64,000 nucleotides of DNA. It comes from Terriglobia bacterium (GTDB lineage: Bacteria; Acidobacteriota; Terriglobia; Bryobacterales; Bryobacteraceae). Numbering within the stretch: the first letter of the stretch is position 1; every line of letters begins with the position of its first letter. Made by a program: the position numbers and the translations under genes. Under the pieces are notes generated by a model that was not told the origin of the DNA, searched no databases, and worked only from the letters and a program-made list of their open reading frames with translations. The DNA is taken from the NCBI GenBank assembly GCA_963846025.1, contig CAWJUG010000004.1, forward strand, positions 250,065-314,064, given 5' to 3'. Shown one piece after another: positions 1-25,209 of the stretch.

Positions 1-523
1 GGATATCCGGATCGAACGCGTTGTAGATGGGGACGCAATCGCGCGCGCCTAGTTCGCGATATCGGTTCGTGACATTATCGCCGCCGCCGTACGTAAAGAC
101 AAGATGGAACTCAGGGAGGGCTGCGAGAAATGGATCGGCCGCATGTGCCGAAAGCCGGTCGAGAGTTGCCGGCGCGTCGACATCCCAAAAGATTTTGCAA
201 ACTGGCGGAAGCAATGAGGAAATGCGGGCTTCGAGAAACTCGTCCAGCACACCGACGCCGCTCGCTTTGACAACTACATCGGCGCGGGCGGAAGCCGCCA
301 GGTGACGATTCACCTCGCCCGTGTCTCCAGCGTCGTAGACGACGATACGAGCCCACTCCGGATCGGGAATGTCGCGATGCTGCTGACGGTCATAAGCATC
401 AGGCTCGTAGAAGGTAATCTGATGTCCTCGGTTGGCGAGTGCGCGAAGAATGCCGCGATAGTATGTGGCCGCGCCATTCCAGTAAGCGGAAACGAGACTG
501 GAGCCCCAGAAGGCGATCTTCAT
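1..523 (-). CDS. CgeB-type glycosyltransferase-like protein (N-terminal part only; gene runs off the left edge)
   Basis: Open minus-strand frame from ATG at 523-521 to the window edge (MKIAFWGSSLVSAYWNGAATYYRGILRALANRGHQITFYEPD...). It is paralogous to the N-terminus of the next gene. ATGA stop/start overlap with 520..1662. Absent from the ORF track because there is no stop in the window. Confidence 0.6.
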   Translation of the reverse strand, partial: MKIAFWGSSLVSAYWNGAATYYRGILRALANRGHQITFYEPDAYDRQQHRDIPDPEWARIVVYDAGDTGEVNRHLAASARADVVVKASGVGVLDEFLEARISSLLPPVCKIFWDVDAPATLDRLSAHAADPFLAALPEFHLVFTYGGGDNVTNRYRELGARDCVPIYNAFDPDI

Positions 524-1662
524 ATCTGGATTCCCTGCTGCAACGTCTCGAAAGCGCTCAAGGCCGGCGTGCTAAGGGTCGTGTAGATGCCGAGCAATTC
601 CTCTACCCGGTGCGCGCAGGTGTGACGTGCGCGAATGGTCTCAAGACCACTGGCAGCCAGACTCCTGGCAAGCGCGCCGTCATTCAACACATCGCGAATG
701 TGCCTCTCCATCTCTTCGCTATCTCGCGCCATCAGGAAGTCTTTACCAACGCGAAACAGACCCTCTTCGTCGCACCATGGCGCAGAAACAAGGGGAATCG
801 CACAGGCGAGCGCTTCGAAAGGTCGAATGGTCGGAATGCCGGGAAGCTCACGCGTATAGGGATGACGCGGCACGTGTACGGTGACTCGGAACTGCGCAAA
901 AACTTCAGGCACCTCAAAGTTAGGAAGCCAGCCGCCGTAGCGAATTCCGCATCGGCCTAATTCGTCGAGAGCGGCAGGGGGGTAACGCACACCGTATACC
1001 TGCGCATGCAACTTAAGATTCCGCACCGGCGTAAGGAAATATTCGCGCAACTCTTCGGTCCGCTCGTCATCACCCCAGTTGCCGATCCAAATAACGTCAC
1101 CTGCTCTTTGTGCCGGCTCTCGTGGATGAAAGACCCTAATGTCAGCGGCTTCATGCCATACGTGCACCTGACGCCCCCAACCGCGGCGTTCATAGGCGCG
1201 CTTCAAGGATGCGCCGTAGGCAAGCACGCCATCATATTCCGACAGATCGAAACGCGAGAGTTCCTGCTCAGCGGTTAAAGCCCGATGATGTGTGTCGTGA
1301 AAAAGCGCGGCGATGCCGTGGTGACAGCGGCGGTATCGGCCAATGGCCGCCACTACAGATGGCTCATTCCATTCATGGACAATAACAAGATCGACCCCGT
1401 CGAGAAACTGATCGAGATCCAGATGCTGCGGCGAATAACGGGTGCTAGCGAGACTCGGAAACGCGTGCTGGAACGCGGCAAGGGCCGCCGGTCCGCGATC
1501 TTCGAGCAGGTTCTGACGGCTCCACGAATTTTCAGGTTCAAAGATGCGAACCTCATGACCGCGAGCTTTCAGCTCAGACGCGATGCCACGAAGAAAATGC
1601 GCGTTGCCATGGTTCCAATCGGAAACCAGGGAATGGTAGAACATGGCGATCCGAAGCTTCAT
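520..1662 (-). CDS. CgeB-family glycosyltransferase-like protein
   Basis: 380-aa ORF (MKLRIAMFYHSLVSDWNHGNAHFLRGIASELKARGHEVRIFEPE...). ATGA overlaps at both ends (1659-1662 and 520-523). The family call is from recollection of CgeB/DUF3880-type proteins. Confidence 0.65.
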   Translation of the reverse strand: MKLRIAMFYHSLVSDWNHGNAHFLRGIASELKARGHEVRIFEPENSWSRQNLLEDRGPAALAAFQHAFPSLASTRYSPQHLDLDQFLDGVDLVIVHEWNEPSVVAAIGRYRRCHHGIAALFHDTHHRALTAEQELSRFDLSEYDGVLAYGASLKRAYERRGWGRQVHVWHEAADIRVFHPREPAQRAGDVIWIGNWGDDERTEELREYFLTPVRNLKLHAQVYGVRYPPAALDELGRCGIRYGGWLPNFEVPEVFAQFRVTVHVPRHPYTRELPGIPTIRPFEALACAIPLVSAPWCDEEGLFRVGKDFLMARDSEEMERHIRDVLNDGALARSLAASGLETIRARHTCAHRVEELLGIYTTLSTPALSAFETLQQGIQI

Positions 1663-2741
1663 GCTGCCGCGCCTTTCTGCGTTACGCGCTTGCCTGATTG
1701 GGAGAGAGATTCGTACAGGTCGTAGTACTGGTCAACAGTACTTCCGGACCAATAGCGAGTCGATTGAAGGCGGGCGAGATCGCCACGCGACCGGCGGGCT
1801 GTTTCGTTCTTCGCAAGCCAAGCAAGAGTGTGACTCCACCGATCGGGGTCACGCGGATCAACAAAGATAGCGGCGCCATCCCACAGTTCACGAAGGGAAG
1901 GAATATCGGAGAGAACCAGACAGCATTGGGCGCGAGCCGCCTCGAGAACCGCAAGGCCGAATGGCTCGTAGAGCGCGGGATGAACAAAAACGGATGCGCG
2001 CTGCATCTGCTGGAGCAAACTTTCGTGCGAGAGAGATCCTGCGATTTCAACGGGCCACGGCAAACCCGAAGTCGCGTCATCCAGCAGCTTTAAGTTCTTG
2101 CCCGTGTCCCAGACCCGCCCCGCGGCAAGGTAGAAAGGCTCCTTTTCGACGCCGTTGTATACAGGCGAGTCGCTAAAATTGTGAATCACGGTGACGCGCC
2201 CGGAAGGCAGACCATAATGATGTGTCAGAACGGCGGCCATAAACGCAGAGGGGGCGACGACGGCATCTGCAGCGCAAAGACCAGCGGTAACACGACGGTG
2301 ATATTCAGCCCATTCCGGCGGAGGCGTTGAATTGTGCACCGCTTGCCACCAGGAGTAAACACAGGAATGGGCAACGACCAGGACAGGGACTTCCCAAGGC
2401 AATGCGGCATGGGCGTAGCCGTTGAGATGAATAACGTCCGGCTGGAACTGCATGGCTAAATCGAGTAACCACGCACCCGCAGCTTCGACCTCAAGCCAAG
2501 GCTGCTGCATCCATTCGAGCTTGTAATCGCACTCGCGAAAAGTGACGCCCGCGAGAGCAGCGAGGCCCATTTTCTGCGCATCGCTGGGACGAGGACCCAT
2601 GGTTGCGAGTAAGACTTGCGCCCCACGGCTAGTCATGTGAGAGACGAGGTCGAGCGAATACTGCCATACACCACCTACGGCATCGGCAGTCATCAGGATT
2701 TTGAGGGGCGGGACGGCGCTATGCGCACCGCTATCGCACAT
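1659..2741 (-). CDS. glycosyltransferase family 4 (GT-B fold)
   Basis: 360-aa ORF. N-terminal KILMTADAVGGVWQY and C-terminal FVHPALYEPFGLAVLEAARAQCCLV (EX7E-like region) are typical of GT4. Overlaps the upstream radical SAM gene by 11 nt. Confidence 0.75.
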   Translation of the reverse strand: MCDSGAHSAVPPLKILMTADAVGGVWQYSLDLVSHMTSRGAQVLLATMGPRPSDAQKMGLAALAGVTFRECDYKLEWMQQPWLEVEAAGAWLLDLAMQFQPDVIHLNGYAHAALPWEVPVLVVAHSCVYSWWQAVHNSTPPPEWAEYHRRVTAGLCAADAVVAPSAFMAAVLTHHYGLPSGRVTVIHNFSDSPVYNGVEKEPFYLAAGRVWDTGKNLKLLDDATSGLPWPVEIAGSLSHESLLQQMQRASVFVHPALYEPFGLAVLEAARAQCCLVLSDIPSLRELWDGAAIFVDPRDPDRWSHTLAWLAKNETARRSRGDLARLQSTRYWSGSTVDQYYDLYESLSQSGKRVTQKGAAA

Positions 2742-4017
2742 GCGCGCTCACTTCCAACTCAACTAACCCTTGTGGACGCTGTTCCTGGATGTCGCTAAAT
2801 GAATCAAAACCTTTGAGGTATGCTTCGTGTGCGCGCTCCCAGGCGAAGTCGTCAGGCGGGCCCCACATGCGCGTATACTCGGGCGAGCCTGGATACGGAA
2901 ACAACGGAACAGGTTTATTGGCCCACACGCCATGCGATTCGAGCTTGACGCGCCAGGACTCCACTTCATCAGCATCGTCTTCCGTCATTGCGAGCAGATT
3001 TGCCTGGACGAAAGGAACAAGCTTTTTGGCGAAGACAAGCCGACCGGTGAGCTCCTCAGTCGACATTTTGCACTTTTTGTCAAGGTAAGCGCGGCCCGCT
3101 TCGGTTATGCTCTCGACACCGGCTTCAATCGACACGCAGCCGGCTCGTGCCAGCGCCGTTATAGCGTCTTCACTCCACAGGTCAAGGCGCGTTTGCACGC
3201 CGAGTTTTATCTCACGTTCTGCCAGCGCGGCAAGAAGCGCTAAATCGGGCAAGAAAATTTCGTCAATGAAGTAAACGTATTCGATCCCCTGCCGGATAAG
3301 TCCGTCCAGTTCTTGCAGGATTACTGGCAAAGGGCGCTTGCGATAGTTGTTGCGAAAATTGTCCTTGGCGCAAAACGTACAGTGGTAGGGACACCCGCGA
3401 GAGGCTTCCATTTCCGCGCCGGGCCCAAGCGGTTCGGCATCAAAGCGGTGATGATGATGCCGATGCTTTGCGATCAGCTTATCCGGCCACGCCAGCGCGG
3501 GAAGGCGCTTCATATCGGCAGCGCGATTGGGGCCCCGAATGATGATCTCATCTCCGCGCCTAAATGCAATCGATTGAACAGAGCCGATGTCACCGGCTAA
3601 TTGGGGCAAAACCTCTTCACACTCGCCAAGGACCACAAAATCGGCGTTTAGCTTGCGCAATGTCGCGCGGGGCGTTGTGGAGCCATGTGGACCAACGATG
3701 ATCTGCTTTGCAGGCACAGCGCGCAGCGCAGCCGAAAGCTCCTGCGGAACTCGCAACTCTGGAGGCGCACAGCGCCAGAAGAGATAGGTAGGCGCAGTAG
3801 TAATGACGATGAAATCGGGCGCATAGGCGGAAACCCGCTGTACGATATCGGGGTAGCCAAGATTATCGAGATGGCCGTCGATCAAGATCACATCATGCCC
3901 GTTCTGTTCGAGCAGCGCTTTCGAATATCCCAGTTCCAGAGCTAAATGAGGCTCGCGGCACCCAAAATAGATGCTGCCTTCAAACGTCCAAGGCGGGTTG
4001 ATCAACGCGTAGCGCAT
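2731..4017 (-). CDS. B12-binding domain / radical SAM protein (class B)
   Basis: CxxxCxxC cluster motif RGCPYHCTFCAK. N-terminal Rossmann-like cobalamin-binding region (MRYALINPPW...GHDVILIDGH...PDFIVITT). I chose the ATG at 4017, which shares one nt with the upstream stop (TGATG), rather than the ORF-track maximum at 4071. Confidence 0.85.
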   Translation of the reverse strand: MRYALINPPWTFEGSIYFGCREPHLALELGYSKALLEQNGHDVILIDGHLDNLGYPDIVQRVSAYAPDFIVITTAPTYLFWRCAPPELRVPQELSAALRAVPAKQIIVGPHGSTTPRATLRKLNADFVVLGECEEVLPQLAGDIGSVQSIAFRRGDEIIIRGPNRAADMKRLPALAWPDKLIAKHRHHHHRFDAEPLGPGAEMEASRGCPYHCTFCAKDNFRNNYRKRPLPVILQELDGLIRQGIEYVYFIDEIFLPDLALLAALAEREIKLGVQTRLDLWSEDAITALARAGCVSIEAGVESITEAGRAYLDKKCKMSTEELTGRLVFAKKLVPFVQANLLAMTEDDADEVESWRVKLESHGVWANKPVPLFPYPGSPEYTRMWGPPDDFAWERAHEAYLKGFDSFSDIQEQRPQGLVELEVSAHVR

Positions 4018-5072
4018 CAGGCGACCATCACTTTCGAGTGCTCGACCAGCGAAGGGCGTTCCAGATACCACTCATAAAGGGTCCGGATTCCTTCGCGAAC
4101 GCCGATTGCGGGAGACCAACGGAGCGTTCGACGGATTTTCGATGTATCCGAGACGTACCATTTCTGATCGCCCAAACGCTCGGGCCCCCAATCGATATCA
4201 ACCGGATTTCCGGTCAAGCTGCGGATCTCCCGAAGTAGTTCGATCAGACTTGTACTATTCGCCGGGCCACCTCCAACGTTGAACGGCTGTCCAGCAACAA
4301 TATCGATGCTTTGCTGTGCAAGGTGCATCGCGCGAACTAGATCGTCGACGAAGAGCAGGTCACGCACCTGCTTTCCGTCACCATAAATGGTGATTGGTTC
4401 GCCCTTCATGGCCTGACGGACAAAATGCGCCACCCATCCCTGATCCTCGGAACCAAGTTGATAACGGCCATAGATGCAACTCATCCGAAATACGGTGGCT
4501 TTGATGCCGTAAGAGCGCGCGTAATCGAGTACGTACTGATCCGCCGCTCCCTTTGAACAGCCATACGGCGAAAGAAAATCCAGAGATTGCTGCTCGCTTA
4601 TGCCCGAAGAAGCGAGGCTCGGCGCTTCCGGTTCCCAACGATTTCCCGTCTTCCGGAATGGAATTTCTGCGAGTTTGCCGTAGACCTTATTGGTTGATGT
4701 GAAGAGTAGGGATGGTCGCGAAGGAGAGCGTCTGATTGCCTCAAGCAGATTCAATGTCCCTGCAAGATTTGTTCGGAAGTCGTGAATCGGATCATCCAGG
4801 CTGGTGGTCACGGCCACCTGAGCGGCAAAATGATAGACCGCCTTGGCCGTATGAACAGCTTTGCGCAGTTCTTCGGCATCACTTACATCTGCCTGCGTAA
4901 AGGAGATGCGCCGAGCATATTGATCCTGCAACTCCGCCAGATTTTGGTCTACTCCAGGACGGCTCAGATTATCGAAGATATGGACGGCCTGATCTTTTTG
5001 TAAGTAGAAACGAGCAATGTTGGTGCCGATAAAACCAGCACCGCCGGTGATCAGTATGTAATCCCTCTGCAC
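4017..5072 (-). CDS. NAD-dependent epimerase/dehydratase (extended SDR; CDP-paratose 2-epimerase-like)
   Basis: ILITGGAGFIGTNIARFY Rossmann motif followed by FDNLSRPGVDQNL; YxxxK in PYGCSKGAAD. Start taken as GTG 5072-5070, preceded by GGGAG and lying after the upstream stop at 5083. The ORF-track start at 5168 would overlap the upstream gene by 86 nt. Confidence 0.8.
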   Translation of the reverse strand: MQRDYILITGGAGFIGTNIARFYLQKDQAVHIFDNLSRPGVDQNLAELQDQYARRISFTQADVSDAEELRKAVHTAKAVYHFAAQVAVTTSLDDPIHDFRTNLAGTLNLLEAIRRSPSRPSLLFTSTNKVYGKLAEIPFRKTGNRWEPEAPSLASSGISEQQSLDFLSPYGCSKGAADQYVLDYARSYGIKATVFRMSCIYGRYQLGSEDQGWVAHFVRQAMKGEPITIYGDGKQVRDLLFVDDLVRAMHLAQQSIDIVAGQPFNVGGGPANSTSLIELLREIRSLTGNPVDIDWGPERLGDQKWYVSDTSKIRRTLRWSPAIGVREGIRTLYEWYLERPSLVEHSKVMVA

Positions 5073-5082
5073 CCCTAGCTCC

Positions 5083-6201
5083 CTAGACCACGAGCCCGCG
5101 CGACGACAGTTCTTCGCGCATCTCGTTGAAGCGATCGTGAGCAGTCTGTTGATCGAGCCAGCCAGCAAGATCGCGCATGCCGCTATCTAGATTGATTTTC
5201 GGATTGTACCCGAGCACTTCCCTGGCGCGCGAAATGTCAGGGAAGCAATGGCGGATGTCCCCAACGCGATATTTGCCAGTGATTTCGGGTTCGATATCCT
5301 TCCCGAGAACGCGAGCTAATTTGCGAGCAACATCGCTAACTCTGATTTCTTGACCGCTGCCGACGTTGAATACCGCGTCACGCGCAGCATCGACTTCAAG
5401 AGCGAGCCGGCAGGCCTGCGCGACATCATAGACACTGACAAAATCGCGCAATTGCTCGCCATCTTCAAAAATCATCGGCCGTTTGCGATTGAGCAATCGC
5501 GACGCGAAGATGGCCAGCACGCCAGTATATGGATTGGACAAGGATTGAAACGGGCCATACGCATTGAAGAACCGCAACGCTATGGTGGGAATGCCGTAAG
5601 CGCGACCCACCACCAGACACATCTGCTCCTGATCGTATTTTGAAAGCGCGTAGACGGAAGCCAGCGAAGGCTGCTTGGATTCGGGCGTTGCGACAGGACG
5701 AAGCGGAGCGCCATCTGGCGTGACCATCTCCCACTCGCGCGCCTTGAGCTGCGCGGCGGTCCGGCTAGCGAATGGATACGCCTCGCCACGGGGGCCAACG
5801 TAGAGACCTTCGCCGTAGATGCTCATGCTCGAGGCCACGATCAATTTGCGCACGGAACTCTTGACGATCCGCTCGAGCAAGGCCGCAGTGCCCAGGTTAT
5901 TGACGCTGGTATACTCGGCGATCTGATACATGCTTTGGCCGACGCCGACCAAGGCGACGAAATGGTAGACCGCTTCGACACCTTTTAGCGCTTGGTCCAG
6001 GATCTCCGGATTTCGAACATCTCCCAAAACGAATTCAACGTGTCTGTTCAAATACCCGGGACGCTCCGGATTATCGCCGTGTACCTGCGTCACCAGGCTA
6101 TCGAGAACTCTTACGTGATATCCAGCTTGCAATAACTCCGTTGCTACATGAGAACCGATGAAGCCAGCACCGCCTGTGATAAGAACGGTTCTTCTTTTCA
6201 T
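5083..6201 (-). CDS. NAD-dependent epimerase/dehydratase (extended SDR, UDP-sugar 4-epimerase-like)
   Basis: MKRRTVLITGGAGFIGSHVA Rossmann motif; YALSKYDQE catalytic YxxxK. Start set at the ATG giving MKRRTV (6201) rather than the ORF maximum 6252. Confidence 0.8.
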   Translation of the reverse strand: MKRRTVLITGGAGFIGSHVATELLQAGYHVRVLDSLVTQVHGDNPERPGYLNRHVEFVLGDVRNPEILDQALKGVEAVYHFVALVGVGQSMYQIAEYTSVNNLGTAALLERIVKSSVRKLIVASSMSIYGEGLYVGPRGEAYPFASRTAAQLKAREWEMVTPDGAPLRPVATPESKQPSLASVYALSKYDQEQMCLVVGRAYGIPTIALRFFNAYGPFQSLSNPYTGVLAIFASRLLNRKRPMIFEDGEQLRDFVSVYDVAQACRLALEVDAARDAVFNVGSGQEIRVSDVARKLARVLGKDIEPEITGKYRVGDIRHCFPDISRAREVLGYNPKINLDSGMRDLAGWLDQQTAHDRFNEMREELSSRGLVV

Positions 6202-6389
6202 TCGTGTCTGTGTGTCCTTTGAAGAGAATGCATAAGGCTCGTGGACCCGCAAAATCTACGAGTCCTTCACTCGATAGGCGGAAAGCCAGTCGCCTCATCA
6301 ACATAGAAAGCTTTGTAGCTCGGTTTGTTACTACTTACCTTTGTTGATGATGAACTTCACGCGTATAACTACGCGGAAACCAGGGGGTT

Positions 6390-7298
6390 TTACTTAGAGT
6401 ACCGGCGCGTCATCTCGGAGCAGAAGTCCGCATACTCGGCGGGATTTACGGGGGGACTTGTGTGATGCGCGCGAACGCCGCAATGCTCAGGAGTGAAACA
6501 GAAAGTAACCGTCAAATCGAACGCGTCGAGCAGACGCATCTGATGGTCAAACCACGACTCGGCGTTGGGCCGGAAGTGATCGGCCCAACTCAATCCAGTG
6601 CGAAGTTTACGCACTCCAAGCTCGTGCAGGTTTTGCACTGCGGCTTCGAGGCGAGGATCTTCGAAATGGAACCATTGACAAATGCCCAGGCCAGGAGCGA
6701 ACTGCGAAAATTGCCGTGCCGCCAATTTCGCGGTCCCGTCTTCGCGAAAGAGCCCCATGTAAAAGTGGCGGTAATAAGAAGATCCTTCGCTCTCCCGGTG
6801 GCGTGTGGTTGCCGGCCAAGCGCGGGGCAAATCAAAAAGACTGTACCAGTAGACGTGATCGGCACGAGGAAGTAATAGTTCGGCAGTGCGCTTGAGCCCG
6901 AACTCTTGCACTTCCTCGGCTCCGAAGGAAGAAGCGCCTACTTCCGATATCCAGATGGGCTTGTCGGTGGCGGCTTGCGCTTCCGCTAACTTGTCGGGCC
7001 ATTCGTTGATGGTCCAATGGTTCCAGTCGAGCGGAAACCCGTGAACAGCGACTACATCAACGTGATCCAAAGCGCCGAGATCACGCATGCGCGTAATGAA
7101 TGACGGATCAATCGGCGAGATGCCGCCCAGAACGCGTTTCAGCCTTGGATTTTCCGCGTGCACTGCCTGTCCCGCAAGCTTGACCATTTCGGCATAAACG
7201 GACCAGTCTCTATCTATCTCGAAATCCCAATGCGAGAGATTGTTCGGCTCATTCCAGAGCATGACGGCTTCAATCATAGGTGGATACGATGGCGGCAA
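6390..7298 (-). CDS. clan GH-A (beta/alpha)8 glycoside hydrolase-like protein with apparently permuted segment order
   Basis: WNEPNN (acid/base region) at residues 15-20 and WISEVG (nucleophile region) at 116-121. The C-terminal 100 aa resemble strands beta1-beta3 of the same fold. Start is TTG 7298 or ATG 7277. Confidence 0.65.
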   Translation of the reverse strand: MPPSYPPMIEAVMLWNEPNNLSHWDFEIDRDWSVYAEMVKLAGQAVHAENPRLKRVLGGISPIDPSFITRMRDLGALDHVDVVAVHGFPLDWNHWTINEWPDKLAEAQAATDKPIWISEVGASSFGAEEVQEFGLKRTAELLLPRADHVYWYSLFDLPRAWPATTRHRESEGSSYYRHFYMGLFREDGTAKLAARQFSQFAPGLGICQWFHFEDPRLEAAVQNLHELGVRKLRTGLSWADHFRPNAESWFDHQMRLLDAFDLTVTFCFTPEHCGVRAHHTSPPVNPAEYADFCSEMTRRYSK

Positions 7299-7313
7299 TA
7301 GTGATGAACTGAT

Positions 7314-8066
7314 TCAAGCCAGCGCCACAGGGATTGGATGCAGGTAAGCGCCTTCGTCGCACCTGCAAATGAATACTTCGGGTTCAGGAATGCTGTCTAC
7401 TCGAAAACCCGCGCTGCGCAGCACTGCTTCGGCGCAGGCGCGATTCGGAATCCACCAGTTGGTCGGATCCTGCGAATAGCTGTGTTCAACGAAGTGCATT
7501 CTCGGAAAACCCGGCTTGTCAAAAACGGCCTGCTCCCAGAACGGATAATCCTGCTCGACAGCAGGGCGAGTACGACTTCCGCGCAGCATCGATTGAAAAA
7601 CGAACCAATCCTTTGCTACATGCTGGCGAAGGAGATCGAGCGCGAGCAACGGATATCGCAGGTGGTAAAACACTCCCATGAACAAAACCAGATCGAAACG
7701 CTCACGAAGTCTCGGAACATCATAGACGGACATCTGCCGGAATTCGATGTCCATGCCTAGCACCCCGGCCGCGAAACGGGCTTGCGCGAGGTATGCCTCA
7801 TCATGATCGATGCCGAGAACGCGCTTCGCGCCCCGGCGTTTCATCTCGATGGAGTAGAACCCGCCATTACACCCGACGTCCAGAACAGTCAATCCAGTGA
7901 GATCAGTGGGAAGCGCGGCACGAAAGTTTTGCCATTTGGTGGCTGGATAATCACCTAAGAAGTGTTCTGGCGCGGTTTGGACACCTTGTAAGTTGAGGTT
8001 GTGAAACCATGGACCTAGTTCTGAAACTTTCTGCTCAATTTCCGGGACGGTCAGGCTGTTTGCCAA
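7314..8066 (-). CDS. class I SAM-dependent methyltransferase (DUF1698/CmoB-like)
   Basis: GPWFHNLNLQG...FLGDYPATKW...VLDVGCNGGFYSIEMKRRGAKRVLGIDHD (motif I). First gene of the minus-strand cassette. Confidence 0.8.
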   Translation of the reverse strand: MANSLTVPEIEQKVSELGPWFHNLNLQGVQTAPEHFLGDYPATKWQNFRAALPTDLTGLTVLDVGCNGGFYSIEMKRRGAKRVLGIDHDEAYLAQARFAAGVLGMDIEFRQMSVYDVPRLRERFDLVLFMGVFYHLRYPLLALDLLRQHVAKDWFVFQSMLRGSRTRPAVEQDYPFWEQAVFDKPGFPRMHFVEHSYSQDPTNWWIPNRACAEAVLRSAGFRVDSIPEPEVFICRCDEGAYLHPIPVALA

Positions 8067-8124
8067 TGATCTCTTCTCCCACTATTTGTATTGACTAGCC
8101 GCGAATAGACACCGCAGCACTTTT

Positions 8125-8727
8125 ATGATTCGTATTCTACTGATCCGCCATGGGCATACCGAATTGTTGGGCAAAGTGTTGTATGGAAGGATGGCGGGAG
8201 TTCATCTCAGCGAGCGCGGGAAACAGGAAACAATCAGACTTGCTAGTCAATTGCGGGAGCGATATCGAATAGACGAGATTGTTTCGAGCCCGATGGACCG
8301 GGCCAAGGAGACTGCCGAGGCGATATCGGGCGCCGAAGGGCAACACATTGTATTCGACGAGGGACTGCAGGAGTTGGATTTCGGTGAGTGGTTGGGCAAG
8401 CCCTTTGCGGAACTTACGTCAGACGAACGTTGGAAGGTCTACAACCGCCATCGCTCGCTGAATAGTGCTCCCGGCGGCGAATTCATGCTGCAGGTACAAC
8501 TTCGGGCGTGGGCTGCTCTGGAACGCGCAATCGCTCGGCACAGCGGTAAACGGGAAGCAACAATCGCCGTAGTGAGCCATGGAGACGTAGTACGGGGATT
8601 ACTCATGCTGTTCCTAGGTATTCCGTTGGATTACATACATAGGCTCGAGGCGGGTACGGCATCAGTAAGCGAAGTCATCCTGGGTGGCGCATACCCGCAA
8701 GTGATCACAATGAATCAGACCTTTTGA
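8125..8727 (+). CDS. histidine phosphatase family protein (phosphoglycerate mutase-like)
   Basis: LIRHGHTE (RHG motif) at the N-terminus and a second catalytic His in VVSHGDVVRG. Confidence 0.8.
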   Translation: MIRILLIRHGHTELLGKVLYGRMAGVHLSERGKQETIRLASQLRERYRIDEIVSSPMDRAKETAEAISGAEGQHIVFDEGLQELDFGEWLGKPFAELTSDERWKVYNRHRSLNSAPGGEFMLQVQLRAWAALERAIARHSGKREATIAVVSHGDVVRGLLMLFLGIPLDYIHRLEAGTASVSEVILGGAYPQVITMNQTF

Positions 8728-8734
8728 GCTGCAC

Positions 8735-10228
8735 ATGTTAAGCGAAAATACCGACGCACGCCGGAAATACCTTCTAGATCTGCTGGTTTCTCAGCTCAGG
8801 GAATTTGTGGTAGTGGTCGCCGATATAGACGGAAGCTTTTTATCCTGGCACCCTGGAGTGCTGCAGCAATTCGGCTACGAGGCAGGCGAATTTATCGGTA
8901 AGCCGGTAGCGATGCTGTTTCCTGAGCCGGATCGAACGGCCGGCGACCCTGAACGCGAACTGGATACCGCGGCTGGTATCGGGAAGGCTTCCGATACGCG
9001 ATGGCTGGTAAACAAAGAGGGCCAGCGGTTGCTAGTTGAAGGCGTAAGCCTGGGACTCCGAGACGAAGCCGGCAATCTCGCCGGTTTTGGCAAAGTAATG
9101 CACGACGTGACGCAGCGCCGCGCCACGGAAGAGCGCTTGAAGGCGCTGACAAGGGCTCTGGAACATTCAACCGTGTTCATCCGGCAGCTCGACGGAACCA
9201 TTACGCACTGGACCGTAGGTTGCGAACGTCTCTACGGATGGACAGCGAGCGAGGCAATAGGAGTGACTTCCTGGAACCTCTTGAAGACGTTTTTCCCGCA
9301 GCCGCTTGACGGAATCGAAGAGCAACTTCTACGGAGCGGGTTTTGGCAGGGGGAACTGGGACAAGTGCGGCGAGATGGCACTTCTGTCTACGTATCGGCG
9401 GACTGGGTGTTGTTATCAGACGCCGGAGGAGAGCCGTCCAGCATCATCTGCACGCATACCGACATCACCTCACGACTGCAGGTCCAGGGGGAATTGGAGG
9501 TTGCCAACGCTCAACTGGAGAGAATGACGCTGGAGTTGGAGCGATCAAACAAAGAACTCGAAGAGTTTGCACGGATCGCTTCGCATGATCTGAGTGCTCC
9601 CATTACCAGCACGCGGTGGCTTGTGGATCTGCTACGGACAAAATACGGCAACAACCTCAACGATGACGGCCAGAAGGTTTTGAGCCAAATTACTGCTGGG
9701 CTGCAGCGGATGAGCGAACTTGTAGATGCCGTATTGGAGCACGCCCAGGTGGGAACCACTCCAATCGGATCTTTGGAGGGTTCAGATGCAGGCGCCGCGC
9801 TCAAAGCCGCGATCGAGGACCTGCGAAAAGACGTAGAAACATCGGGCGCGAGAATTTCTTATGGGCCGCTACCGGCAGTAAAAGTGACCACACAAGCGTT
9901 AACTCAGTTGTTCCAAAACCTGCTTTCAAACGCTATTAAGTACGGGAAGCCGGATACACCGCCCGAAGTGACCGTGAGCGCGAAACGTACAAAAGACGAT
10001 TGGACAATCAGTGTCACTGATAACGGCGTTGGTATTGAAGCCGATTGGCTTGAGCGCATTTTTCAGCCGATGCAAAGGCGGCACGGACTCGAAATCGCGG
10101 GCAGTGGTATCGGCTTAGCAACATGCAGAAAGATCGTCACTCGGGCTGGTGGAAAGATCTGGGCCGAATCCGTGGTTAGCAAGGGATCGACTTTTCATTT
10201 CACTGCTCCTGCAGCGAAGGCAGAATAG
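8735..10228 (+). CDS. PAS-domain sensor histidine kinase
   Basis: Two PAS-like segments, an H-box (FARIASHDLSAPI), an N-box (LLSNAIKYG) and G-boxes (DNGVGI, GSGIGLATC). Confidence 0.85.
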   Translation: MLSENTDARRKYLLDLLVSQLREFVVVVADIDGSFLSWHPGVLQQFGYEAGEFIGKPVAMLFPEPDRTAGDPERELDTAAGIGKASDTRWLVNKEGQRLLVEGVSLGLRDEAGNLAGFGKVMHDVTQRRATEERLKALTRALEHSTVFIRQLDGTITHWTVGCERLYGWTASEAIGVTSWNLLKTFFPQPLDGIEEQLLRSGFWQGELGQVRRDGTSVYVSADWVLLSDAGGEPSSIICTHTDITSRLQVQGELEVANAQLERMTLELERSNKELEEFARIASHDLSAPITSTRWLVDLLRTKYGNNLNDDGQKVLSQITAGLQRMSELVDAVLEHAQVGTTPIGSLEGSDAGAALKAAIEDLRKDVETSGARISYGPLPAVKVTTQALTQLFQNLLSNAIKYGKPDTPPEVTVSAKRTKDDWTISVTDNGVGIEADWLERIFQPMQRRHGLEIAGSGIGLATCRKIVTRAGGKIWAESVVSKGSTFHFTAPAAKAE

Positions 10229-11268
10229 CCACCCGAGACGTCAGCGCCGAACTGTTTCTGGTTACCAGAAGAATTTACAACCGCAGTCAAATGGGCGACC
10301 AGTTGATCAACAACGGCGCTCCAATTGCCGGGCTCCGGTTGGCGAAACAGCCGCATTGTGGGATACCACGGGGAATCGCTACGATGCAGCATCCAGCGCC
10401 AGTCGCACTCGTAAGGTAATAAAACCCAAACGGGAACTCCTAGCGCCCCGGCGAGATGTGCCGCCATTGTATCCACCGAGATAACCAAATGCAATTGTTT
10501 GAGAACGCGTGCAGTGTCGTGAATGGTGGACACCGAATTGTGGAGATCGCAAATTTCCAGCGACCAAGGCGACAGCTCACAGTGCTCCGGACCTGACTGC
10601 AGTCCATAAAACGAAATGCCTGGAATGGTGAATAAAGAAGCGACATGTTCGATTGGAATCGAACGGGAAGGATTGAAGGCGCTCGACGTCCAGACCACGC
10701 CGACCTGCAACGAGTTTGAACCAGCCCCTAACGGAGACTGAAGGATATTCGTGGCACGGAGATACGGAACGCTGCAGGGAATTGTTTCAAGAGTCGTGCG
10801 AAAAATCCGAGGCAGCTCCATGACTTCAATTTGCTGATCCCAGGGCGGCTCAGTCTCTGACCAGGTGATGACGTTATCGGCAAGACCGGACTGCTCTATA
10901 AGGGTTCGCAATTTTGGTTGAGCTTCGATAGTGACCGAACGGGCAATGGCACGTATGAGAGGAGCGTAGCGGATGAACTGGAGGGTATCGCCCAAGCCGT
11001 GAAGACAGCGGATAAGAATACGGTTATTGTGGAGTGAGCGGCCATCCCAGAATCGATTTGAATCCGGTTTCCCGCGGGTTGCAATCCGATCACTTTCACG
11101 CCAAGCATCTTCGAAGTTTCCCAGCAACATGTGGCACTGCCAGCGTCCCGCAGCACACAGATCCGTGTCAGATTCAGCACGTTGCGCTGCATCGAACAGC
11201 ATCAAGGCCTGGTGTATCCGCATGGCGCTTAGTTCGCCCTCGGCTTGCGCTAAAAGAAAATCGCTCAT
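10195..11268 (-). CDS. TPR-like N-terminus fused to a glycosyltransferase family 9 (heptosyltransferase-like) domain
   Basis: LHGLGDTLQFIRYAPLI and VDTMAAHLAGALGVPVWVLLP are typical GT9 segments. The 3' end overlaps the convergent kinase gene by 34 nt. Confidence 0.65.
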   Translation of the reverse strand: MSDFLLAQAEGELSAMRIHQALMLFDAAQRAESDTDLCAAGRWQCHMLLGNFEDAWRESDRIATRGKPDSNRFWDGRSLHNNRILIRCLHGLGDTLQFIRYAPLIRAIARSVTIEAQPKLRTLIEQSGLADNVITWSETEPPWDQQIEVMELPRIFRTTLETIPCSVPYLRATNILQSPLGAGSNSLQVGVVWTSSAFNPSRSIPIEHVASLFTIPGISFYGLQSGPEHCELSPWSLEICDLHNSVSTIHDTARVLKQLHLVISVDTMAAHLAGALGVPVWVLLPYECDWRWMLHRSDSPWYPTMRLFRQPEPGNWSAVVDQLVAHLTAVVNSSGNQKQFGADVSGGYSAFAAGAVK

Positions 11269-11417
11269 GCTCTAACGGTTCATTTGCAGCAGAAAAATTT
11301 GTGGCAGAAAACTGGTAATAGTTACGGTCTGAACTGTGTCCAAAGATCGAATTGCTGACCGGTAATTGTGCGGGGCGTGCAGTGTTGAATGGCCCCGGGT
11401 TGCGCGAGGCCGAATTT

Positions 11418-12054
11418 ATGACATCAAGCAAACCATTTGAAAGCCCGAAGCGTAAGGTGTTGTTTTCAGACGATCACCATATCGTATTAGATGCGCTCTC
11501 TTTTGTGGCACAGGACGAATTTGAGGTTCATGCGGTGGATACCTTAGCCGCGCTCAGGCAGGCAGTCGATGAGTTTGAGTCCTGATCTAATCGTACTCGA
11601 CATCCGTATGCCGGATGGGGACGGCATCGAGGCTGCAAGCCAGATTCTCGCTCGCCATCCCGACGTGAAAATTCTGTTTCTTTCGACTCACAGCGAGCCA
11701 TCGATCGTCAAGCGAGCGCTGGAAACGGGCGCCCTGGGGTACGTCTCTAAGCGAGCCGCGGCGGACGAGTTGATGCTCGCGATACGCACCGTGCTGAATG
11801 GGGGCAAATACGTCGGCGAGCGAATTGACGTTAACACAGAGAATGGGGCAGACGATACGGATCGTGTTTTGACCGAACGGCAGAAGGAGGTTTTGCGGCT
11901 GATTGCGCAGGGTTGCTCCGCAAAGGAAATCGCAAACCGGCTGAATATTTCCGTGCGAACCGCCGAGTTCCACAGAGCTGCCATCATGGACCGGCTGAAA
12001 CTACACTCCACTGCCATGATGACGCGGTATGCAGTAGAAAATGGCCTAGACTAG
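11418..12054 (+). pseudogene. LuxR/NarL-family response regulator with the receiver domain split by a 1-nt frame disruption near 11574-11582
   Basis: Frame A reads KVLFSDDHHIVLDAL...AVDEFES*. Frame A+1 continues PDLIVLDIRMPDGDG...KILFLSTH... and ends in an HTH (TERQKEVLRLIAQGCSAKEIANRLNISVRTAEFH). Removing one T of the TTT run restores ...AVDELSPDLIVLDIRMP. Confidence 0.8.
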
Positions 12055-18340: not shown

Positions 18341-19093
18341 ATGTCTGCGAAAAAAGCTTCCAAACCAGTTGCTCTTGTTACAGGCGGGAGCCGAGGCATC
18401 GGGCGCGCCATTGTGGAGGATCTTTCCCGCACACACCAGGTTATTGCCACTTACAACACCAATCGCGCGGCGGCACAAGAGGTGGCAGATGCGACGGGCG
18501 CGGTGATGCTGCCGTGTCAACTAGGCGATGCGAATTCGCGGCAAGAACTAGCAAACACAATCAGGCGCGATTTCCACGACGTCGATTTACTTGTAAACAA
18601 TGCGGGCGTCGCTCCGCGGGAAAGGCGCGACATTCTTGAAGCGACCCCCGAAAGTTTCGATGAGTTGTTTGCCACAAACCTAAAAGGTCCCTATTTCCTA
18701 ACGCAGGATATAGCCCACTGGATGCTGGAGCGGCAATCGGGGCGAATTGTTTTTGTCAGCTCAATCTCGAGTTTTACTGCGTCCACCAACCGCGGGGATT
18801 ATTGCATGACTAAAGCAGCTATTAGCATGGCGGTAAAACTGTTTGCTGCACGCTTGGCGCCGCACAACGTTCAGGTATTCGAAATTCAGCCGGGAATTAT
18901 ACGCACGGACATGATTGCCTCCGTTGCCGCAGCCTACGACAAGCGCATCCAGGAAGGTCTGCTGCCGCAGCGTCGAATGGGCGAGCCGGCCGACGTAGCC
19001 CGCGCAGTAAGAGCAATTGCCGACGGACTATTGGACTATTGCACCGGGCAGGCGCTGCACGTGGATGGTGGGTTTCACCTTCGGACGCTGTGA
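18341..19093 (+). CDS. short-chain dehydrogenase/reductase (3-oxoacyl-ACP reductase-like)
   Basis: TGGSRGIGRAI cofactor motif, NNAG, catalytic YCMTKAA. Confidence 0.85.
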   Translation: MSAKKASKPVALVTGGSRGIGRAIVEDLSRTHQVIATYNTNRAAAQEVADATGAVMLPCQLGDANSRQELANTIRRDFHDVDLLVNNAGVAPRERRDILEATPESFDELFATNLKGPYFLTQDIAHWMLERQSGRIVFVSSISSFTASTNRGDYCMTKAAISMAVKLFAARLAPHNVQVFEIQPGIIRTDMIASVAAAYDKRIQEGLLPQRRMGEPADVARAVRAIADGLLDYCTGQALHVDGGFHLRTL

Positions 19094-24732: not shown

Positions 24733-25209
24733 ATGATGAGCGAGAAAGCGACATTTGGGGCTGGGTGCTTCTGGGGAGTGGAAGCAACCTTTCGTGAGAT
24801 CGATGGGGTGATTGACGCGGCAGCCGGATACGAAGGCGGCCAGACCGCCGATCCGACGTATAAGGACGTCTGCACCGATCGCACTGGGCACGCCGAGGTA
24901 GTGGAGGTTGAGTACGATCCTGCAAGAGTGAGCTATGACAAGCTGCTCGATGTGTTCTGGAGCGCGCACGATCCGACACAGGTAAACCGCCAAGGGCCGG
25001 ACGTGGGCACGCAATACCGAAGCGTCATCTTCTTTCACACGCCCGAACAGCAGCAGATTGCGCGCGCCTCAAAGAACAAGCAGGAAGCATCCGGACGATA
25101 CCGCCGTCCTATCGCAACCCAGATTGTTCCTGCGCAGAGCTTCTATCGGGCGGAAGAATATCATCAGCAGTACCTTGCTAAACGCGGCTTAAGACACTGC
25201 CATATTTAG
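24733..25209 (+). CDS. msrA: peptide-methionine (S)-S-oxide reductase
   Basis: [15 protein letters not shown] active-site motif. Typical length of 158 aa. Confidence 0.9.

Follow-up and report, generated by a model that had tools for sequence, protein, structure and literature searches.

A Terriglobia copy of the conserved 'rhizo-twelve' cassette and a possible cytoplasmic route to a small methylated oligosaccharide

What might be made by a packed row of genes that combines a methyltransferase, a glycoside-hydrolase-like protein, two sugar-epimerase-like proteins, a B12-type radical SAM protein, and several glycosyltransferases? We addressed this question for a locus at the left end of a 64,000-nucleotide stretch of Terriglobia DNA (the window). 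Judged by its family scores, the locus is an acidobacterial (Terriglobia) member of the curated but uncharacterized TIGR04295/TIGR04290 'rhizo-twelve' family of cassettes. A first-pass annotation of the same DNA had suspected this membership, and the scores bear it out: 689 bits against a TIGR04295 cut-off of 400 for the radical SAM protein (rSAM) and 384 against a TIGR04290 cut-off of 300 for the methyltransferase (MT). Close rSAM homologs carry the JGI label 'B12-binding domain/radical SAM domain protein of rhizo-twelve system', and the literature searched contained neither a mention of the two families nor an assigned product. Pfam and TIGRFAMs matches likewise agreed with the annotated enzyme inventory of methyltransferase, GH-A hydrolase, SDRs, B12-radical SAM protein, GT4, and CgeB-like proteins (Table 1). 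Comparison with relatives suggests that the window holds the right-hand part of the cassette, about nine and a half genes. We favor, at a little below an even chance, the reading that the cassette is a cytoplasmic pathway assembling a small, defined, methylated oligosaccharide or glycoside.

Table 1. Features of the cassette in the window
Feature	Coordinates	Strand	Basis
Second CgeB-like glycosyltransferase paralog (CgB), 5' part, 174 codons, runs off left edge	1..523	-	N-domain only; orthologous position in all related loci
CgeB-like glycosyltransferase paralog A (CgA), 380 aa, GT-B fold	520..1662	-	PF13524 115 bits
GT4 family glycosyltransferase, 360 aa	1659..2741	-	PF13439 78 bits, PF00534 51 bits
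TIGR04295-family B12-binding-domain radical SAM protein (rSAM), 428 aa	2731..4017	-	TIGR04295 689.2 bits, cut-off 400; PF02310 + PF04055
SDR2, extended SDR resembling CDP-tyvelose 2-epimerase, 351 aa, GTG start	4017..5072	-	PF01370; best solved relatives 1orr, 9rl0
SDR1, GalE-type NAD-dependent sugar 4-epimerase-like, ~40-aa insertion, 372 aa	5083..6201	-	PF01370 169 bits in two stretches
Conserved noncoding 40-nt element AAGGTAAGTAGTAACAAAC..AGCTACAAAGCTTTCTATG in GH-SDR1 gap	6302..6341	-	Alignment of intergenic regions, window + 22 related loci
Circularly permuted clan GH-A (beta/alpha)8 glycoside-hydrolase-like protein (GH), 295 aa from ATG 7277 (longest ORF TTG 7298)	6390..7277	-	PF11790 (Glyco_hydro_cc) 24.7 bits, weak
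TIGR04290-family (Rta_06860-type, DUF1698-related) SAM-dependent methyltransferase (MT), 250 aa, TTG start behind GGGAG	7314..8066	-	TIGR04290 384 bits (cut-off 300); DUF1698/PF08003 66 bits
Histidine-phosphatase-superfamily protein, 200 aa, divergent from MT, outside the region of the first-pass annotation	8125..8727	+	PF00300 151 bits, RHG motif

The eight minus-strand reading frames described in the first-pass annotation were all recovered in place when ORFs were read from the sequence, and each junction that it listed was correct on direct reading. The MT stop (TGA, 7316 to 7314) is followed 15 nt on by TTG 7298, the start of the longest GH ORF; the gap is 36 nt if GH starts at ATG 7277, as in the gene call of the identical database protein P0121 (295 aa). 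The SDR1 stop (TAG, 5085 to 5083) leads through GGAGCTAGGG to the SDR2 GTG at 5072, and the TGATG at 4019 to 4015 has one base common to the SDR2 stop and the rSAM start. The rSAM stop (2733 to 2731) and the GT4 ATG at 2741 give an 11-nt overlap, which is identical in relative L001, while ATGA forms both the GT4/CgA junction (1662 to 1659) and the CgA/CgB junction (523 to 520). The annotated list omitted one gap. From the hydrolase stop at 6390 it is 137 nt to TTG 6252, which starts the longest SDR1 ORF, and 188 nt to ATG 6201, which fits the N-terminus of the homologs (MKRRTVLITGGAGFIG). The frames and junctions thus stand, but to call the locus an eight-gene translationally coupled string was an overstatement because this ~190-nt gap, with its conserved element, splits it. 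MT-GH and SDR1 through the CgeB-like genes are two tightly packed blocks, and there are probably two transcription units. An exact 16-mer of the element is found a single time in the window, where 0.04 occurrences would be expected, and the element matched no Rfam family; for the gap as a whole, folding gave z = -2.4, but the outer stem is not conserved. The element is a candidate promoter for the second block. On the other side, the cassette runs past the left window edge as annotated: CgB is cut there, and a third CgeB-like gene (CgC) would follow, judging from relatives whose rSAM is 84 to 88% identical. The flippase, polymerase, and lipid carrier transferase that had been expected leftward are absent in relatives, in which the rest of CgB, CgC, and then unrelated genes take up that side.

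How far this arrangement is kept can be seen in 68 full-length loci, each at least 21 kb, from Acidobacteriota, Chloroflexota, and Alphaproteobacteria. The gene-neighborhood comparison, which the first-pass annotation had recommended, found the core order SDR1-(SDR2)-rSAM-GT4-CgeB-like x3 retained across phyla in 67 of them, and such recurrence in three groups is more than chance. The conserved core is the seven genes SDR1-SDR2-rSAM-GT4-CgA-CgB-CgC, to which the MT-GH pair and the histidine phosphatase are accessory. MT and GH stand side by side in 55 of the 68 loci, brGT-brNT is present in 20, SDR2 is absent from about 10, and the GT4 gene follows the rSAM gene in all related loci compared. 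The cassette has 522 relatives among GTDB species representatives, with only two full-length clusters above 400 bits at 50% clustering. Identity between Acidobacteriota and Alphaproteobacteria is 63% for MT and GH and 54 to 60% for rSAM (63 to 89% within Acidobacteriota), and the cassette would seem to be under strong constraint. In Azospirillum, Bradyrhizobium, and Tistrella, plasmids or chromids carry the cassette. Its neighborhoods hint at stress functions: a YdaD-like SDR recurrently adjoins it in three lineages, its neighbors include Mn-catalase, Ku/LigD, and treZ, and in Bradyrhizobium it is preceded by an EcfG-type box.

The two SDRs resemble epimerases. By sequence, SDR2 is specifically CDP-tyvelose-2-epimerase-like, matching 1orr (264 bits) and 9rl0 (261 bits) over the full length with the next best solved structure at 151 bits, and it has the motifs GAGFIG and Y170xxxK. 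SDR1 has Y184xxxK, and its best PDB matches are UDP-glucose 4-epimerase (4zrm) and MoeE5 (6kv9). The best PDB matches of MT are CmoB (54 bits) and the sugar O-methyltransferase EvdMO1 (41 bits).

The chemistry of rSAM is harder to read from its relatives. Its motif is C209-x3-C-x2-C, its B12-binding domain passes the Pfam threshold (42.9 versus 32.1 bits), and most of the characterized enzymes that combine these two domains are methylases. Yet its best solved relative, at only 32 bits over the core, is the diol dehydratase AprD4 (6fd2); OxsB was also matched, the NCBIfam runners-up are BchE (72 bits) and a lipid-biosynthesis rSAM, and HpnJ was matched at 27.6 bits. With one of the SDRs, rSAM might therefore carry out a radical dehydration or deoxygenation (AprD4/AprD3-like), or it might contract the ring of a sugar or turn a sugar into a carbocycle (HpnJ-, OxsB-, or BchE-like). 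That would put a deoxy or carbocyclic unit in the product and leave the TIGR04290 enzyme as the source of its only methyl. The SDR genes always lie directly ahead of the rSAM gene, as in rSAM-plus-reductase pairs, and the cassette already has a separate SAM methyltransferase. However, these similarities are all weak and restricted to the common core, the methylases HpnR, Mmp10, PhpK, CysS, and KedN5 match at similar levels, and the SDRs are nearest to epimerases rather than ketoreductases, so that we regard a nonmethylase rSAM as distinctly unlikely.

The glycosyltransferases bear on where the product is made. Orthologs of the CgeB-like proteins are 54 to 64% identical across phyla (56 to 64% for CgA versus its Azospirillum ortholog, 49% over 172 aa for the CgB part versus the second Azospirillum paralog), whereas the paralogs share only 26 to 46% among themselves. 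That each is kept as its own ortholog fits three different linkages, not a polymerase. A Foldseek search with the AF2 model of CgA (pLDDT 86) ranked ManT of the methylmannose polysaccharide (MMP) pathway first and also returned BH4 glucosyltransferase, MshA, BshA, sucrose-phosphate synthase, GlgM, and TreT, all GT4-type enzymes with soluble or cytoplasmic acceptors; the top rank of ManT is weak evidence, since the GT-B scores are tightly bunched (E of 4e-15 to 1e-10, TM of 0.55 to 0.71). GT4 itself has a weak MshA match (29.6 bits). In none of the cassette proteins is any stretch of 19 residues as hydrophobic as a typical membrane helix, and all are predicted to be soluble. Nevertheless, membrane lipids are the substrates of the GT4 enzymes PimA and PimB', neither of which has a membrane segment, so the solubility of the proteins does not prove that the product is soluble.

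The cassette might instead build or decorate a cell-envelope glycoconjugate at the inner membrane face, either an inositol- or hopanoid-linked glycolipid or an LPS/EPS side chain, with the lipid acceptor, flippase, and ligase encoded elsewhere. Five glycosyltransferase-type genes with nucleotide-sugar epimerases are the usual make-up of surface-glycan loci, and PimB' and PglA, which use lipid-linked acceptors, are among the CgA matches. In Bradyrhizobium, Tistrella, and Geminicoccaceae the cassette is joined by a UDP-glucuronate decarboxylase-like gene, and Bradyrhizobium makes bradyrhizose, an inositol-fused O-antigen sugar whose genes were unknown in 2016, although the cassette is far commoner than bradyrhizose-producing strains. 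An MsbA-like ABC exporter follows the cassette, but in only 5 loci, and within 10 kb in the 68 loci there was no priming phosphoglycosyltransferase, Wzx/Wzy, O-antigen ligase, acyltransferase, or phosphatidylinositol synthase; nor was a flippase, polymerase, or priming transferase among the recurrent neighbors. Surface-glycan loci are also normally variable, unlike this one with its 54 to 64% identity between phyla, no membrane segments are predicted, and the embedded phosphatase and hydrolase suit solute pathways better. An envelope product thus seems unlikely to us.

The embedded hydrolase has an unusual architecture. On alignment and in the AF2 model, it is a circularly permuted GH-A barrel: its residues 7 to 199 align with residues 118 to 305 of the Tistrella GH domain and residues 201 to 302 with residues 12 to 115, the sequence once de-permuted aligns colinearly with PslG/GH39, and the first of the eight modeled strands is beta4. 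The catalytic motifs are N16-E-P and S-E119-V-G. GH70 glucansucrases are circularly permuted relative to GH13, and they are likewise natural TIM-barrel glycosidase permutations with catalytic residues retained; the window enzyme differs in belonging to clan GH-A (GH39/GH53/GH128-like) and in having its new N-terminus just ahead of beta4. In other lineages, a canonical-order GH-A domain is fused ahead of the tyvelose-epimerase-like SDR2 (Tistrella, Geminicoccaceae, and 21 Bryobacterales-type loci), and some genomes have the permuted and canonical forms together in one cassette. An rSAM-GT4 fusion also exists (database protein P0361) but could be a frameshift artifact, as the two genes overlap by 11 nt. 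Both fusions would count for functional coupling within the pathway.

Clues to the acceptor come from the histidine phosphatase, which belongs to the cassette system: it is present in 55 of the 68 full-length loci and lies inside the cassette in the twelve-gene form. In A. lipoferum, A. brasilense, and Bradyrhizobium it adjoins an inositol-3-phosphate synthase, which occurs in only 3 of the 68 loci and scores 513 bits on TIGR03450, below the cut-off of 638; 5 loci add a PIG-L/MshB-type deacetylase. The phosphatase is also distantly akin to glucosyl-3-phosphoglycerate phosphatase. Within 10 kb, loci of the window clade contain neither a nucleotidyltransferase nor an inositol-phosphate synthase and so give no pointer to their donor or acceptor. 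Aminoglycoside and aminocyclitol clusters such as that of gentamicin also combine inositol-phosphate synthase, epimerases, class B rSAM, methyltransferase, and several glycosyltransferases, and the plasmid or chromid location noted above would suit a gene cluster for a secreted specialized metabolite, for example, a cyclitol-containing pseudo-oligosaccharide signal or antibiotic. We consider this highly improbable given that the loci lack an aminotransferase, a resistance gene, and a dedicated exporter, that the inositol synthase is so rare among them, and that such extreme sequence conservation and fixed order in hundreds of species would be atypical.

For the cytoplasmic pathway that we favor, we infer every chemical step from family resemblance. 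A common NDP-hexose (or pentose or uronate) would be epimerized at C4 by SDR1 and at C2 by SDR2. GT4 would place the first sugar on a phosphorylated small acceptor, which may be inositol phosphate where the cassette has inositol-3-phosphate synthase, and the histidine phosphatase would then remove the phosphate, as in sucrose, glucosylglycerate, and mycothiol synthesis. The three distinct GT4-like CgeB-type transferases could add one further residue each, rSAM would act on an unactivated carbon of a sugar, with C-methylation the likeliest outcome, and the TIGR04290 enzyme would supply an O-methyl group. The permuted hydrolase may trim or cleave the product for turnover or primers, as MmpH does in mycobacterial MMP. 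That the product protects against stress or is a solute that binds fatty acids is guesswork based on the neighboring genes.

Several known systems resemble parts of this scheme. GenK and GenD1 (gentamicin) and MoeK5 (moenomycin) are class B radical SAM sugar C-methylases; the window rSAM shares their B12-binding plus radical SAM core layout and carbohydrate pathway setting, and a MoeE5-like epimerase is among the better SDR1 matches. The AprD4/AprD3 deoxygenation pair is likewise represented by the top PDB match of the rSAM core. These similarities do not go beyond the superfamily (no named family scores above 72 bits), and those enzymes serve actinomycete antibiotic clusters. The first steps of mycothiol synthesis (Ino1, the GT4 enzyme MshA, the phosphatase MshA2, and the PIG-L deacetylase MshB) have counterparts that co-occur in some cassettes, and MshA is among the top fold matches of CgA. 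However, Ino1 and the deacetylase are missing from the window and its surroundings, the cassette has no cysteine ligase or acetyltransferase genes, and similarity scores are far under the family cut-offs.

A precedent for a cytoplasmic cluster of this composition is the MMP cluster MeT1-MmpH-MeT3-ManT, in which a GT4-type transferase occurs with one or more SAM methyltransferases and with a primer-making endo-hydrolase encoded inside the cluster (PMC9883506). ManT heads the structural matches of the CgA model, and in the MGLP pathway (GpgS/GpgP) priming involves the histidine-phosphatase-family GpgP, a distant relative of the window phosphatase. MMP differs in having no radical SAM protein, no SDR epimerases, and one polymerizing glycosyltransferase, against four or five distinct ones in the cassette, and one would not expect the window MT and GH to be homologous to MeT1/MeT3/MmpH. 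The resemblance to the mycobacterial polymethylated polysaccharide pathways is one of mode of working, not family membership. Family membership lies with the Azospirillum, Bradyrhizobium, Tistrella, and Bryobacterales loci of TIGR04295/TIGR04290 (NCBIfam B12_rSAM_oligo and meth_Rta_06860), whose core order the window shares. The full form, in loci L049 to L081, has twelve genes: the histidine phosphatase, a fourth CgeB-like glycosyltransferase, a nucleotidyltransferase, MT, GH, SDR1, a GH-SDR2 fusion, rSAM, GT4, and CgA to CgC. Compared with it, the window clade is without the fourth glycosyltransferase and the nucleotidyltransferase and has an unfused SDR2, the permuted GH only, and a divergent phosphatase.

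The left end of the window carries a reduced, ten-gene form of a system that TIGRFAMs has already catalogued and curated under the label 'rhizo-twelve', and is thus one more member of it. The first-pass annotation had pointed to a cassette of this kind, in which a B12-binding radical SAM protein is paired with a DUF1698-like methyltransferase, and had proposed profile searches as the check; both proteins scored above the curated cut-offs, and the overall interpretation is supported. The radical SAM protein reached 689.2 bits against TIGR04295 (E 1.7e-207; cut-off 400 bits), with residues 20-440 of its long ORF covering profile positions 1-422 of 422. It carries the CX3CX2C cluster motif as C209PYHCTFC and matches both PF04055 (48 bits; gathering threshold 29.5) and, through its N-terminal B12-binding domain, PF02310 (42.9 bits; threshold 32.1). 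The methyltransferase reached 384 bits against TIGR04290, the Rta_06860-type profile (cut-off 300; positions 2-226 of 226), and 66 bits against PF08003/DUF1698, and the SAM-binding motif I VLDVGCNGG is seen in its translation. In the literature searched, no TIGR04295 member had been characterised, and we found no paper that names either family or 'rhizo-twelve' or assigns a product.

Features of the window and of related loci (L numbers), with coordinates on each locus.
Feature	Position	Strand	Basis or remark
CgB, second CgeB-like paralogue (partial, N-domain)	1-523	-	49% identical to Azospirillum CgB
CgA, CgeB-like transferase	520-1662	-	PF13524 115 bits, gathering threshold 25
GT4 glycosyltransferase	1659-2741	-
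rSAM, radical SAM protein	2731-4017	-	TIGR04295; PF02310 and PF04055; C209-x3-C-x2-C
SDR2	4017-5072	-	Full-length match to 1orr
SDR1	5083-6201	-	GalE-like; ~40-residue insertion ahead of Y184xxxK
GH, hydrolase	6390-7277	-
MT, methyltransferase	7314-8066	-	TIGR04290; PF08003
HisP, histidine phosphatase	8125-8727	+
MT-GH junction	TGA 7316-7314, 15 nt, TTG 7298	-	Sequence reading
SDR1-SDR2 junction	TAG 5085-5083, GGAGCTAGGG, GTG 5072	-	Sequence reading
SDR2-rSAM junction	TGATG 4019-4015	-	Sequence reading
rSAM-GT4 junction	11-nt overlap 2731-2741	-	Sequence reading
GT4-CgA junction	ATGA 1659-1662	-	Sequence reading
CgA-CgB junction	ATGA 520-523	-	Sequence reading
Conserved non-coding element, 40 nt, AAGGTAAGTAGTAACAAAC..AGCTACAAAGCTTTCTATG	6302-6341 (GH-SDR1 gap)	-	Alignment of window and 22 related acidobacterial loci
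PAS-domain histidine kinase	8735-10228	+
357-aa protein	10195-11268	-	34-nt overlap with the kinase gene
NarL/LuxR-type response regulator	11320-12054 (ORF 11569-12054)	+	161 aa
Closest homologue of the YdaD-like SDR	18341-19093		29% identity
UDP-glucuronate decarboxylase-like SDR	25206-26150	-	17 kb from the cassette
Canonical GH-SDR2 fusion	L084 9956-12004; L049-L081, ORFs ending at 10017		Alignment
EcfG-type box GGAAC-N16-CGTT	L083 2764-3100		Motif search; upstream of inositol-3-phosphate synthase
Near-copy of EcfG-type box, GGAACGAACATTCCTTGCACCGCTT	L083 9614-9824		Motif search; upstream of SDR1
YdaD-like SDR	L001 16671-17579; L084 21518-22369; L085 7765-8637

Two relatives of the radical SAM protein deserve separate mention. 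With this protein as query, only two full-length clusters in the 50%-identity representative library exceeded 400 bits, and one of them (P0361) is an 844-residue protein that shares 60% identity with the window radical SAM protein over residues 1-425 and 40% with the window GT4 enzyme over residues 437-812. This apparent fusion could be real or a frameshift artefact, given the overlap of the two genes. A relative from a sister group (P0364; 419 aa, 48% identical) has lost the CX3CX2C motif, with SRGGGDPSDFG in its place, and may be an inactive paralogue.

Relatives of the radical SAM protein number more than 6,500 at E <= 1e-10 among 90%-identity protein clusters. The top 120, at 77-89% identity, belong to metagenome-assembled genomes of Terriglobia, 'Bryobacteraceae', and 'Acidobacteriaceae', and many of these proteins are labelled 'rhizo-twelve system' by JGI. 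In a scan of GTDB species representatives, 522 encoded relatives, and 80 loci with 10-kb flanks were examined; a plasmid search contributed Azospirillum, Bradyrhizobium, Tistrella, and one Geminicoccaceae strain. ORFs were called in all loci and assigned to reference proteins, and gene counts refer to the 68 loci that are 21 kb or longer. The order SDR1-(SDR2)-rSAM-GT4-CgA-CgB-CgC, where CgC is a third CgeB-like paralogue, is found in 67 of these 68, and the window order MT-GH-SDR1-SDR2-rSAM-GT4-CgA-CgB agrees with it. SDR2 was called in 57 loci, the methyltransferase adjoins the hydrolase in 55, and a histidine phosphatase is present in 55; a fourth CgeB-like transferase together with a sugar-phosphate nucleotidyltransferase occurs in 20, and an inositol-3-phosphate synthase in 3.

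Bryobacterales-type loci (L049-L081) have SDR1, SDR2, rSAM, GT4, CgA, CgB, CgC, the phosphatase, the fourth glycosyltransferase, the nucleotidyltransferase, MT, and GH, exactly twelve genes, which accounts for the TIGRFAMs name. In the window clade (L002-L045), a divergent phosphatase gene is followed by MT, GH, SDR1, SDR2, rSAM, GT4, CgA, CgB, and CgC; within 10 kb there is neither the fourth CgeB-like transferase nor the nucleotidyltransferase, both of which occur in L049-L081 and on plasmid p195_1 of Bradyrhizobium sp. 195 (L083). Because the phosphatase is conserved in both forms, its gene, which lies beyond the range first annotated, is part of the system. To judge from the relatives, the remainder of CgB and then CgC should lie to the left of the window, followed by a secreted VWA-type protein and a YdaD-like SDR, both clade-specific neighbours. 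The 306-aa VWA-type gene after CgC was considered as a cassette member and rejected, as this secreted acidobacterial protein is confined to one clade and its position is probably synteny by descent. On the other side, the PAS-domain histidine kinase directly follows the phosphatase gene, as in 29 related loci, and the 357-aa protein, homologues of which flank the cassette in 46, converges on it. Both are limited to the window's clade, so they too probably reflect synteny by descent rather than function, and the kinase was likewise rejected as a member. The response regulator further on is missing the N-terminal portion of the receiver domain, with three stop codons in the upstream in-frame sequence (relatives are ~230 aa), and is possibly a pseudogene or a sequencing error.

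Direct reading of the sequence confirmed each junction listed in the first-pass annotation, and the 11-nt and 1-nt overlaps are identical in a relative (L001). The list had omitted the GH-SDR1 junction, where 137 nt separate the hydrolase gene from the longest ORF start and 188 nt from ATG 6201, the start that agrees with the N-terminus of SDR1 homologues. The seven complete minus-strand ORFs of 1-8066 and the eighth cut by the left edge therefore fall into two compact blocks, one made up of MT and GH and the other running from SDR1 to the CgeB-like genes, and not into the single string of eight coupled genes that had been claimed.

The hydrolase itself has a rearranged architecture. In long-ORF numbering, its acid/base motif is N16-E17-P18 (after beta4) and its nucleophile E119 (after beta7), and both glutamates are invariant in 40 homologues; a 100% identical database protein of 295 aa (P0121) starts at ATG 7277. 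An NEP motif at residues 16-18 is far too near the N-terminus for an ordinary GH-A barrel. The AlphaFold2 model (pLDDT 81, pTM 0.84) has eight strands that depart from the canonical beta1 to beta8 order: it opens with the NEP strand, beta4, and ends with the strands and helices that normally come first, beta1-beta3. Residues 7-199 align to residues 118-305 of the Tistrella GH domain and residues 201-302 to its residues 12-115. When re-ordered to the canonical sequence, the protein aligns colinearly with residues 25-278 of PslG (GH39), but in its natural order it does not. Sequence and model thus identify the predicted enzyme as a circular permutant of the clan GH-A (beta/alpha)8 barrel. The alignment to a GH53 galactanase covers both catalytic motifs. 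Family-level matches are weak: PF11790 scores 24.7 bits (gathering threshold 21), PF07745 falls short of its threshold at 14 bits, and PslG is matched at E 0.003. Foldseek with the model returned generic TIM barrels and partial GH10 matches and named no GH family, as expected for a permutant.

A canonical counterpart of this domain exists in the same system. The SDR2 proteins of Tistrella, Geminicoccaceae, and 21 Bryobacterales-type loci are ~680 residues long, and the first ~320 form a canonical-order GH-A domain. Every stand-alone hydrolase of ~300 residues that adjoins the methyltransferase is permuted alike in all lineages, including Azospirillum and Bradyrhizobium. The 12-gene form has both the fused canonical and the permuted copies, whereas the window clade has the permuted copy only. 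A permuted barrel beside an epimerase-fused canonical form provides a clean natural case for TIM-barrel permutation.

The gap between the two blocks holds the conserved 40-nt element, the 16-nt core of which is found a single time in the window (0.04 expected). It contains GTAAC and, ~19 nt on, TCTAT, and is possibly an alternative-sigma-type promoter. The element has no Rfam match, a search of the gaps for a cobalamin or SAM riboswitch gave no Rfam family at E <= 1 in 1-10500, and consensus scans for sigma-70 promoters and terminators stayed at chance level. A structured RNA in this gap was considered (z = -2.4) and set aside in favor of the promoter-like element, as its main stem is not conserved in relatives. 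The box and near-copy on the Bradyrhizobium plasmid are of the EcfG general-stress type, and the relaxed motif has a background rate of 0.04 per kb. A 'general stress protein 39'-like SDR of the YdaD type with a Gln/Pro-rich N-terminus, 47-59% identical between Acidobacteriota, Tistrella, and Geminicoccaceae, recurs as a neighbor of the cassette in all three and may be an accessory component or a stress-island marker; its closest homologue in the window is probably not an orthologue. Further neighbors include Mn-catalase, ferritin-like, Ku/LigD, and treZ genes, and by guilt by association the loci have a general-stress flavor.

With regard to the sugar-modifying enzymes, SDR2 aligns over its full length with the CDP-tyvelose 2-epimerase 1orr (264 bits, residues 6-345 on 4-342) and scores 261 bits against 9rl0, the next family reaching 151 bits; GxxGxxG and YxxxK are confirmed, which places it by sequence among the CDP-tyvelose 2-epimerase-like extended SDRs. 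Sequence searches detected no solved structure for the CgeB-like proteins. The AlphaFold2 model of CgA (pLDDT 86) has a GT-B fold of two Rossmann domains and matches many GT4 GT-B structures at a Foldseek probability of 1.0. The top match is ManT, the methylmannose polysaccharide mannosyltransferase (E 4e-15, TM 0.64), and others are tetrahydrobiopterin glucosyltransferase, MshA, BshA, sucrose-phosphate synthase, GlgM, PimB', and TreT. Most of these are retaining GT4-type enzymes with soluble cytoplasmic acceptors. The predicted likeness to soluble-acceptor enzymes, with ManT first among closely spaced scores, is suggestive only.

Between Acidobacteriota and two alphaproteobacterial loci, MT and GH are 63% identical, rSAM 59%, and SDR1 56%, with GT4 and the phosphatase only ~40% identical. 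CgA, CgB, and CgC are mutually 26-46% identical and each 54-64% identical to its own Azospirillum orthologue, which indicates old, distinct functions. Identities of 54-64% between phyla point to a strongly constrained, probably physiological role; a secreted specialized metabolite is a rival explanation of the cassette.

A flippase, a polymerase, and a lipid-carrier transferase had been expected to the left, and this expectation did not hold: when unassigned neighboring ORFs of the 85 related loci were clustered, no flippase, polymerase, ligase, or priming transferase appeared among the recurrent families. Hydrophobic windows resembling a membrane helix are absent from all cassette proteins. 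An envelope glycoconjugate served by export genes elsewhere is a rival reading, and an MsbA-like ABC exporter follows the cassette in only five loci (L054, L061, L064, L072, and L081); the priming phosphoglycosyltransferase and the polymerase or ligase that a Wzx/Wzy- or ABC-dependent surface polysaccharide locus would also have do not appear among the recurrent neighbor families. Five loci (L046, L047, L056, L068, and L081) have a PIG-L/LmbE-type deacetylase, which recalls MshB of mycothiol synthesis, and an extra GT4 after the GH gene. Elsewhere in the window, the UDP-glucuronate decarboxylase-like SDR is 50% identical to a cassette-attached one in Bradyrhizobium and homologous to those of Tistrella and Geminicoccaceae; unlinked to the cassette here, it could be a source of UDP-xylose.

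From these predicted activities we infer a scheme in which SDR1 and SDR2 would epimerize a nucleotide sugar at C4 and C2, and GT4 would glycosylate a small phosphorylated acceptor, which might be inositol phosphate where the synthase is present. The phosphatase would then take off the phosphate, and CgA, CgB, and CgC would each add one residue. The radical SAM enzyme may C-methylate or otherwise remodel a sugar carbon, a radical reaction without methylation being the rival to the former, while the TIGR04290 enzyme would O-methylate and the hydrolase would trim or recycle the product. Taken as one claim, which is possible and on the whole rather doubtful, the cassette would make an undescribed class of intracellular carbohydrate, a defined glycoside resembling a tetra- or pentasaccharide, carrying an O-methyl group and a radical-SAM C-methyl (or otherwise radical-remodeled) sugar and primed on a phosphorylated polyol, e.g., inositol phosphate. 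It would serve as a stress or lipid-handling solute in a large proportion of soil Terriglobia and in Azospirillum and Bradyrhizobium, with turnover by the permuted GH-A glycosidase that is elsewhere fused to the 2-epimerase.

The inositol link also brought bradyrhizose synthesis into consideration, the genes for which were unknown as of a 2016 paper. We regard it as very improbable: the cassette is far more widespread and has no O-antigen genes. Another idea was that the 12-gene form uses its nucleotidyltransferase as an inositol-phosphate cytidylyltransferase to supply CDP-inositol; it was dropped, as this protein matches RmlA-type enzymes only, and weakly. An Ensifer aridi inositol paper was discarded as a lead, since it concerns catabolism, and in the literature searched no relevant paper turned up for combinations of inositol-3-phosphate synthase, radical SAM, CgeB, EcfG, and C-methylation.

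What the present analysis adds to the catalogued system is the permuted GH-A barrel, which has a canonical fused twin, and the recognition that the phosphatase is a component. Further additions are a link to inositol synthase in particular lineages, the finding that export genes are lacking nearby, the conserved element within the cassette, and the predicted ManT-like fold of the CgeB-type transferases. The cassette is among the more widespread conserved gene systems that have no assigned product, and it is especially common in Terriglobia, a dominant and poorly cultured soil group, and in plant-associated Azospirillum and Bradyrhizobium. The window locus gives no direct evidence on the product, yet the cassette is an attractive target. 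Identifying its product would show what a whole orphan family of carbohydrate-acting, cobalamin-type radical SAM enzymes uses as substrate and give functions to three or four orphan CgeB-like transferases. The product might also prove to be a new compatible solute or a new lipid-chaperone glycan with a bearing on survival in soil. In its mode of working, the cassette most resembles the methylmannose polysaccharide cluster of mycobacteria (PMC9883506), where methyltransferases and a GT4 mannosyltransferase act on primers that an endo-hydrolase releases from the mature glycan; the likeness would be functional, the glycosyltransferase being the one component compared, through the structural match of modeled CgA to ManT.
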